NCBI RefSeq assembly: GCF_003334305.1
Contig: NZ_QOWS01000081.1
DNA: 378 nucleotides
From: Escherichia coli
GTDB lineage: Bacteria > Pseudomonadota > Gammaproteobacteria > Enterobacterales > Enterobacteriaceae
Strand: one strand, 5' to 3'
The first letter of the stretch is position 1; every line of letters begins with the position of its first letter. Shown in pieces: positions 1-378 of this stretch. Below the pieces are notes generated by a model. That model did not search any database, had not been told where the DNA came from, and was given only the letters and a program-made list of their open reading frames with translations. The position numbers and the translations under genes were made by a program.

Positions 1-378
1 CGCCTCCCCCGGCAGCAGCGGCTCAAAGTGAATGCTCCGCCCGCCGTTGTCGTTGAGTACCAGTGCATCATCGCGTAGCTGTAAGCGGATATCAGAAGGC
101 GCTTTCCAGCCGGGGCCAAACACTCCCACCGGCGCGGGTGTCCTGGTCCGGTAGCTGCTGTAGGTGCGGGAGAGAATGAACGGCAGCGGGCCGGGCAGCG
201 CAAGGTCCGTCTCGCCGGGCAGCACCTTCGCCCCCAGCAGCGGATTTACCGGGTTGCCCGAAGTCATCCCGCCCGGACACACCGAGCACGCCACGCCGGT
301 GGGCGCGCCAATTCTTACACCTGCCGAACCCTGGACAATGGGACCGCCATACTGAGTCATATCTCCCTGACGCGCCGC
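1..378 (-). CDS. rhs: Rhs-family polymorphic toxin protein, N-terminal portion (PAAR-like domain plus linker); partial at both ends, true start just beyond position 378, gene continues beyond position 1
   Basis: Seen in sequence: the reverse complement read in phase from position 378 gives 126 sense codons and no stop. The translation begins AARQGDMTQYGGPIVQGSAGVRIGAPTGVACSVCPGG, which from memory matches the conserved N-terminus of E. coli-type Rhs proteins (MSGKPAARQGDMTQYGG...), followed by the Pro/Gly-rich stretch LPGETDLALPGPLPFILSRTYSSYRTRTPAPVGVFGPGWKAPSDIRLQLRDD. GC3 in this frame is about 73% by hand count, consistent with a genuine reading frame. The paralog (rhsA/B/C/D-like) cannot be resolved from 378 nt, so only a family-level symbol is given. 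Confidence 0.9.
220..378 (-). other. Region encoding a PAAR-like domain (PAAR_RHS type) at the N-terminus of the Rhs protein; boundaries approximate, and the first residues of the PAAR motif lie outside the window
   Basis: The translation shows the pattern (P)AARxGD...GGPIVQGSxxVRIGxPxxG...C-x-x-C, which resembles the PAARxGD / GSxxVxIGG signature of PAAR repeat proteins. Established knowledge: many Rhs proteins carry an N-terminal PAAR-like domain. The domain end was placed by eye, not by HMM. Confidence 0.55.

Follow-up and report, generated by a model that had tools for sequence, protein, structure and literature searches.

The window analysed here, a 378-nt stretch of DNA from Escherichia coli, is open throughout in frame 0 of the minus strand, and a six-frame translation gives stops in each of the other five frames. 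The 126-residue translation of the open frame starts with AARQGDMTQYGG…, continues through PVNPLLGAKVLPGETD… and has …FEPLLPGEA at its C-terminal end. It matches the NCBIfam profile NF041261 ('RHS element core protein') over profile positions 6-131 (273 bits, E 3.9e-81) and the Pfam family DUF6531 (PF20148; E 5.2e-20), values far beyond chance. From the ORF, the profile match and 100% DNA identity to known genes, window 1-378 (minus strand) corresponds to codons 6-131 of an RHS core protein gene of the RhsD/E subfamily, that is, gene nt 16-393, with the ATG lying 15 nt past window position 378. The base composition (65.9% GC, GC3 73%) is in keeping with the high GC that is typical for the Rhs core. 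By its sequence, then, the window is identified as the 5' end of an E. coli rhs gene of the RhsD/E subfamily, in reverse complement, and the minus-strand ORF together with the NF041261 and DUF6531 matches bears out the view of the earlier note that the stretch lies in the conserved N-terminal part of rhs. The plus strand holds just three ORFs of 38-63 aa, which are antisense to 66% GC coding DNA and were set aside as GC-rich antisense artefacts. No Rfam family was matched at E <= 1 on either strand of the window. Repeats internal to the window amount to one 19-nt direct pair (79%) and one 13-nt inverted pair, which is chance level, so the repeat discussed below is one between loci and not inside the window.

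A gene with an identical window is found in E. coli C, where it occupies the position of K-12 rhsE, the gene order being yncH - vgrG - rhs - ydcD - ISAs1, and encodes 1407 aa. The full gene scores 2777 bits over positions 1-1261 of NF041261, an equivalog built on a 1261-position core with a curated cutoff of 2000 bits; the window alone falls under this cutoff because it is only a fragment. YD repeats were found in the carrier gene with TIGR01643 (YD_repeat, E 6e-47), Rhs_assc_core was also matched, and Pfam RHS_repeat gives 8 matches at E <= 0.001 within residues 365-678, so placed that the window lies upstream of the repeats. The end of the core is marked outside the window by the PxxxxDPxGL motif at residues 1249-1258 (PIQVIDPMGL / PLQQIDPMGL), after which the C-terminal tips of the two loci described below are unrelated to each other. 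In the carrier gene, the core has 64.3% GC and the tip 40.5%. Small genes of the immunity type, ydcD at the rhsE locus and ybbC at the rhsD locus, follow downstream of rhs, again outside the window. With YD/RHS repeats, PxxxxDPxGL, a variable tip and a GC-rich core all present, the carrier gene shows every hallmark of Rhs and can be classed with the Rhs/YD-repeat polymorphic toxins.

Within the translated window two segments can be told apart. Window 253-378 (minus strand) encodes residues 6-47, a small N-terminal domain upstream of the Rhs shell that is delimited by the translation and its equivalent in Tse5, and window 25-258 (minus strand) encodes residues 46-123, the DUF6531 segment (PF20148; E 2.9e-18 on the full protein), which is the first structural element of the shell. 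The N-terminal domain contains the literal sequence P5-A-A-R8, of which the window takes in A6 onward, and two Cys residues. A PAAR domain by Pfam was considered and rejected, PAAR_motif aligning to residues 3-20 of the full protein with a non-significant E of 0.28; because of this, that the domain is a PAAR-like adaptor docking VgrG is something that we infer, and the role is a presumed one. The nearest described layout is that of Pseudomonas aeruginosa Tse5 (PA2684), a T6SS PAAR-like Rhs effector, in which a PAAR-like domain without the motif (Met1-Lys47), an Rhs domain (Pro48-Leu1168) and a C-terminal toxin are released as three self-cleaved fragments (PMC9637101). Both proteins begin with a domain of ~47 residues, followed by a shell whose first residues, from Pro48 on, read PVNP(L/M)LG(A/S)K, and PDB entry 8cp6 chain B, the Tse5 shell fragment, starts with PVNPMLGSK directly opposite window aa 43, which is residue P48 (E 1e-10). 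By this homology the boundary between N-terminal domain and shell, and with it N-terminal self-cleavage, is predicted between N47 and P48, whose codons occupy window 250-255 (minus strand) between …SGN and PVNPLLGAK…. Tse5 differs from the E. coli protein in being distant in sequence (E 1e-10 over ~80 residues), and cleavage and T6SS delivery are putative for the latter. In E. coli C, both STEC strains examined and ATCC 8739, the rhsE-locus copy is preceded, at a distance of 66 nt, by a vgrG gene (confirmed by TIGR03361, 614 bits), an arrangement that fits the VgrG-docking reading of the N-terminal domain; the rhsD-locus copy has no adjacent vgrG and has ybbP upstream instead. On the alignment to Tse5 and the Tse5 domain limits, the window probably encodes a VgrG-docking N-terminal domain, the cleavage junction and the first element of the shell.

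To which of the rhs genes the window is related was determined by comparison with E. coli K-12. Its identity to rhsD (b0497) is 96.8%, with 12 differences and 3 amino-acid changes, and DNA identity is 81.0% to rhsC, 80.2% to rhsB and 79.6% to rhsA, three genes that are 98-99% identical to one another in K-12; 108/126 residues are shared with the N-terminal region of RhsA/B/C. The same division holds for the full core, which is 98.1-99.1% identical over 3774 nt within RhsD/E and 77% identical to the RhsA/B/C type. Since identity is 96.8-100% to genes at the rhsD and rhsE loci and 79.6-81.0% to rhsA/B/C, the window belongs to the RhsD/E subfamily. In alignment to K-12 rhsD, all 12 differences fall in an allele-specific patch at window 60-145 (positions 60, 65, 67, 73, 118, 121, 124, 133, 136, 139, 143 and 145), and window 146-378 shows no difference. 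The longest exact runs shared with the other type are 23 nt (rhsA, rhsB) and 44 nt (rhsC), the latter at window 155-198 in the alignment to the K-12 rhs genes, and it is the sole stretch long enough for megablast seeding or minimal RecA pairing against RhsA/B/C. K-12 rhsD and rhsE, the RhsD/E subfamily of Hill and co-workers, thus share family, subfamily and chromosomal loci with the window gene. K-12 departs from the usual state in its single copy of this region: the 5' half of rhsE is gone there (b1456 is a truncated remnant), and so is the vgrG. K-12 rhsA, rhsB and rhsC, of the RhsA-B-C-F subfamily, are like the window gene in their homologous N-terminal region and in being a dispersed repeat of the same kind, and unlike it in that, where mapping and recombination are concerned, they effectively make up a repeat family of their own. 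Copies that are ~20% divergent, such as rhsA/B/C, make poor RecA substrates owing to the minimal length for pairing and to the barrier that divergence sets. At ~80% identity, judged from the alignments, copies of the rhsA/B/C type are neither ambiguous for mapping nor good RecA substrates for the window.

Genes of the window's own subfamily normally occupy two fixed chromosomal loci, ybbP-rhsD-ybbC and yncH-vgrG-rhs-ydcD (the 'rhsE' locus), ~1.0-1.4 Mb apart, and the flanking genes of both are the same in K-12, E. coli C, STEC 2011C-4251 and STEC 2015C-3163. Three closed genomes served for comparing the copies within a genome, those of E. coli C and of the two STEC strains, which are close relatives of each other. 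E. coli C carries the window at 100% identity at both the rhsE locus (L001 12001-12378) and the rhsD locus (L008 16304-16681), and its two paralogues (L001 8170-12393 and L008 12416-16696) have 0 mismatches over nt 1-3460, 33 mismatches after nt 3460 up to nt 3774, and then unrelated tips. Identity of these paralogues begins exactly at the ATG, with no shared bases upstream. In both STEC strains, identity to the window is 100% for the copy at the rhsD locus and 99.7% for the one at the rhsE locus, the alignment showing a single synonymous base at window 340 (G in the window, A in the rhsE-locus paralogue); the STEC paralogues have 1 mismatch over nt 1-1946 and then 85-121 mismatches over nt 1947-3460. 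Comparison over nt 1-1946 gives 0-1 nt of difference for the paralogues of one genome and 30-54 nt for a given locus compared across strains. Identity breaks off abruptly, at nt 1946 in STEC and at nt 3460 in E. coli C. The dispersed repeat is ~3.5-3.8 kb long, from the gene ATG to the core end at ~nt 3774, and the window is one arm of it: 15 nt past window position 378 the loci become unrelated, with ybbP-side intergenic DNA at one and vgrG-side intergenic DNA at the other.

Two further rhs remnants were seen in these chromosomes. An 80-nt fragment, 76% identical to window 299-378, lies in the ylbI pseudogene of K-12 (L002 10513-10592) and at L008 10367-10446 of E. coli C, ~2 kb downstream of rhsD, as a degenerate extra copy of the rhs gene start. 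Between cusS and nfrB, E. coli C has a decayed third vgrG-rhs island (L007 7413-9420) without the window sequence, in which a truncated tssI/vgrG is fused to an rhs C-terminal remnant; small ORFs and an ISAs1 transposase adjoin it.

To count copies across the species, the window was compared by megablast with 5426 complete E. coli genomes and was found in 3872 of them, at 10,546 places, where the annotation reads 'RHS element core protein' or 'rhsD'. The best match is at least 99% identical in 1174 records, and is 100% in 40/40 among the matches listed. Places per genome have a median of 3 (range 1-8), a figure that we rejected as a count of ambiguous copies: it takes in rhsC-type copies at 81%, because the one shared 44-nt run (window 155-198) seeds megablast, and misses rhsA/B types, since these share no run of more than 23 nt with the window. 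It was replaced by a count with window 1-154, a D/E-specific query that has no long run in common with RhsA/B/C, which gave matches in 3664/5426 genomes at 5717 places, with a median of 2 and a maximum of 4 per genome. In genomes with the exact allele, among the matches listed (n=60), this query finds two D/E places in 52/60 and one in 8/60, so that ~13% of the sampled carriers, roughly one in eight, have a single D/E copy. ATCC 8739 is a genome with one D/E-type copy found, at the vgrG locus. The vgrG-linked rhs of that strain (L013 1396-2576) is shortened by an IS1 insertion, after which orphan rhs C-terminal fragments follow, and an ISEc1 copy lies between yncH and vgrG.

The earlier note had suggested that the stretch may lie at more than one locus, with near-identical cores. 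The first point holds in closed genomes with the exact allele, both in the 52/60 listed and in the three compared directly. The second holds for the same-subfamily D/E copy; it fails for the rhsA/B/C type at 79.6-81.0% and for the 8/60 listed genomes that have a single copy. One may then ask whether the source genome could itself have one RhsD/E gene with an intact 5' end, in which case the window would be single-copy at near-identity and caution over it inapplicable. The eight one-place genomes speak for this, as do ATCC 8739 with its vgrG-linked copy alone and K-12 with an rhsE that lacks the region, and any aligner could resolve rhsA/B/C copies at 79.6-81.0% with exact runs of 23-44 nt. Against it, two copies are present in 52/60 of the listed exact-allele genomes, and the second copy is 99.7-100% identical in 3/3 two-copy genomes compared; we regard a single-copy source as unlikely.

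Each locus has the same neighbours in K-12, in E. coli C and in the STEC strains, so the duplication that gave the two loci is old. An old duplication, paralogues that are closer than orthologues, and sharp tract ends together lead to concerted evolution of the rhsD and rhsE loci by gene conversion, which we infer from the alignments and hold to be strongly indicated. The alternative is that the near-identity of the paralogues reflects recent duplication or purifying selection on the protein, leaving a repeat that is multi-copy and recombinationally inert in nature. In its favor, Jackson et al. 2009 dispute rhs elements as natural rearrangement hot spots, noting the lack of any published case of a natural chromosomal rearrangement through rhs and calling the original phenotype artefactual (PMC2935791), and no rhs-bounded inversion is seen at the loci of both STEC strains. 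Recent duplication is contradicted, however, by the shared flanks, which place the event before the lineages separated, and selection at the protein level would be unable to erase synonymous differences, whereas the strain-specific substitutions that the paralogues have in common are for the most part silent (0-1 against 30-54 differences over nt 1-1946). The sharp tract ends at nt 1946 and nt 3460 and a reported experimental rhsD x rhsE crossover (PMC9551528) also speak against inertness, and we consider this alternative very improbable. As to a transposable element moving around the genome, ISAs1/H-repeat transposase genes do adjoin rhs loci and a handful of matches are on plasmid-labelled records, but this reading is effectively refuted, since the copies are at the same chromosomal sites in unrelated strains, the homology starts from the exact ATG, terminal repeats and common bases upstream are absent, the repeat does not include the ISAs1 copies, and the inspected 'plasmid' records are linear stray chromosome pieces.

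The account that we favor is a two-locus RhsD/E repeat, at ybbP-rhsD-ybbC and yncH-vgrG-rhs-ydcD, homogenised by RecA-dependent gene conversion, and as a whole we think it highly probable. In this account RecA-dependent exchange between the two loci would keep long tracts identical within a genome, and crossing-over between them could lead to duplication or excision of the interval for direct copies and to its inversion for inverted ones. Short-read assemblies break or collapse at the window repeat. Because exchange would keep the tracts identical, the window is not assignable to one locus by its own sequence, and neither rhsD nor rhsE can be named as its origin from the window alone.

Crossing-over between direct copies is known to give duplication or a (lethal) deletion, and between inverted copies an inversion. 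The rhsD and rhsE copies are direct in K-12, E. coli C and STEC 2015C-3163, and inverted in the related STEC 2011C-4251. A large inversion separates 2011C-4251 (CP027388.1; L009 at 2.35 Mb, L010 at 1.10 Mb) from 2015C-3163 (CP027219.1; L011/L012). We considered rhs as an endpoint of this inversion and rejected it: the native flanks of both loci of 2011C-4251 are intact on either side, and the inversion thus did not go via rhs and has its endpoints elsewhere. No inversion or other rearrangement with rhs endpoints was found at either locus of 2011C-4251 or 2015C-3163. Under laboratory conditions, rhsD x rhsE recombination has circularised a ~957-kb E. coli fragment in Hfr hybrids (PMC9551528). 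The term 'rearrangement hot spot' was, according to the passage of PMC3045373 that cites Lin, Capage & Hill 1984, defined on rhsA/rhsB/rhsC. The suggestion that the stretch is a recombination substrate and rearrangement hot spot can thus be retained in its first part, given tracts of 1946-3460 nt, the conversion signature and the rhsD x rhsE crossover (PMC9551528); the hot-spot part rests on laboratory selections, its natural role is disputed (PMC2935791) and no rhs-bounded rearrangement was found.

For mapping and assembly, the relevant geometry is that the window lies at the very end of the repeat, with 15 nt between it and locus-specific DNA, so that reads or mates across the ATG are uniquely placed; away from the ATG, repetitive sequence goes on for 1.5-3 kb. 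In 454 assemblies, 5/62 of the common contig breaks fall at rhs elements, with each of the five of K-12 represented, and a misassembled rhs accounted for one false polymorphism (PMC3045373). In this respect rhs resembles rRNA operons, IS elements and tufA/B, multi-kb repeats longer than short-read insert sizes that cause contig breaks (PMC3045373; PMC7430833), and it differs from them in having two near-identical copies that are protein-coding, carry hypervariable 3' ends and are not mobile. The warning that reads and contigs here may be ambiguous was therefore sound for the same-subfamily copy at 99.7-100%, in line with the published contig breaks at rhs, and too broad for the rhsA/B/C copies and for reads that are anchored across the ATG.

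Records labelled as plasmids were also examined. A plasmid or mobile origin was rejected: of 9 PLSDB records with the window, two were inspected and are linear contigs of stray chromosomal DNA, and another is 4.8 Mb long and evidently a mislabelled chromosome. CP048292.1 (L014), a 7,010-bp 'plasmid', is linear, consists of fragmented rhs ORFs and transposase pieces and starts inside the window; it looks like an assembly artefact at the window repeat. NZ_CP069916.1 (L015), a 19,343-bp 'plasmid' of Klebsiella oxytoca, is a linear E. coli ybbA-rhsD-allW chromosome segment and probably represents contamination.

The multiplicity of Rhs elements, their subfamilies, their GC-rich core and laboratory-selected rhs recombination have been known since the 1980s-1990s, so that a caution over multi-copy rhs repeats, correct as it is, is already textbook knowledge and biologically nothing new. 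Its use is practical, in that variant calls, read depth and contig ends in the window need the care due to a two-copy repeat. Of mild interest, as a by-product, is how cleanly the rhsD and rhsE loci bear the mark of concerted evolution. Going beyond the three genomes compared, we lean towards the view that rhsD x rhsE gene conversion may be frequent in natural E. coli, homogenising the first 1.9-3.5 kb from the ATG with tract ends that are specific to the strain. If this is true, it would contradict the picture of rhs repeats as recombinationally silent in nature, and it would offer a route by which toxin tips could pass between a T6SS-deliverable locus and a non-linked one.
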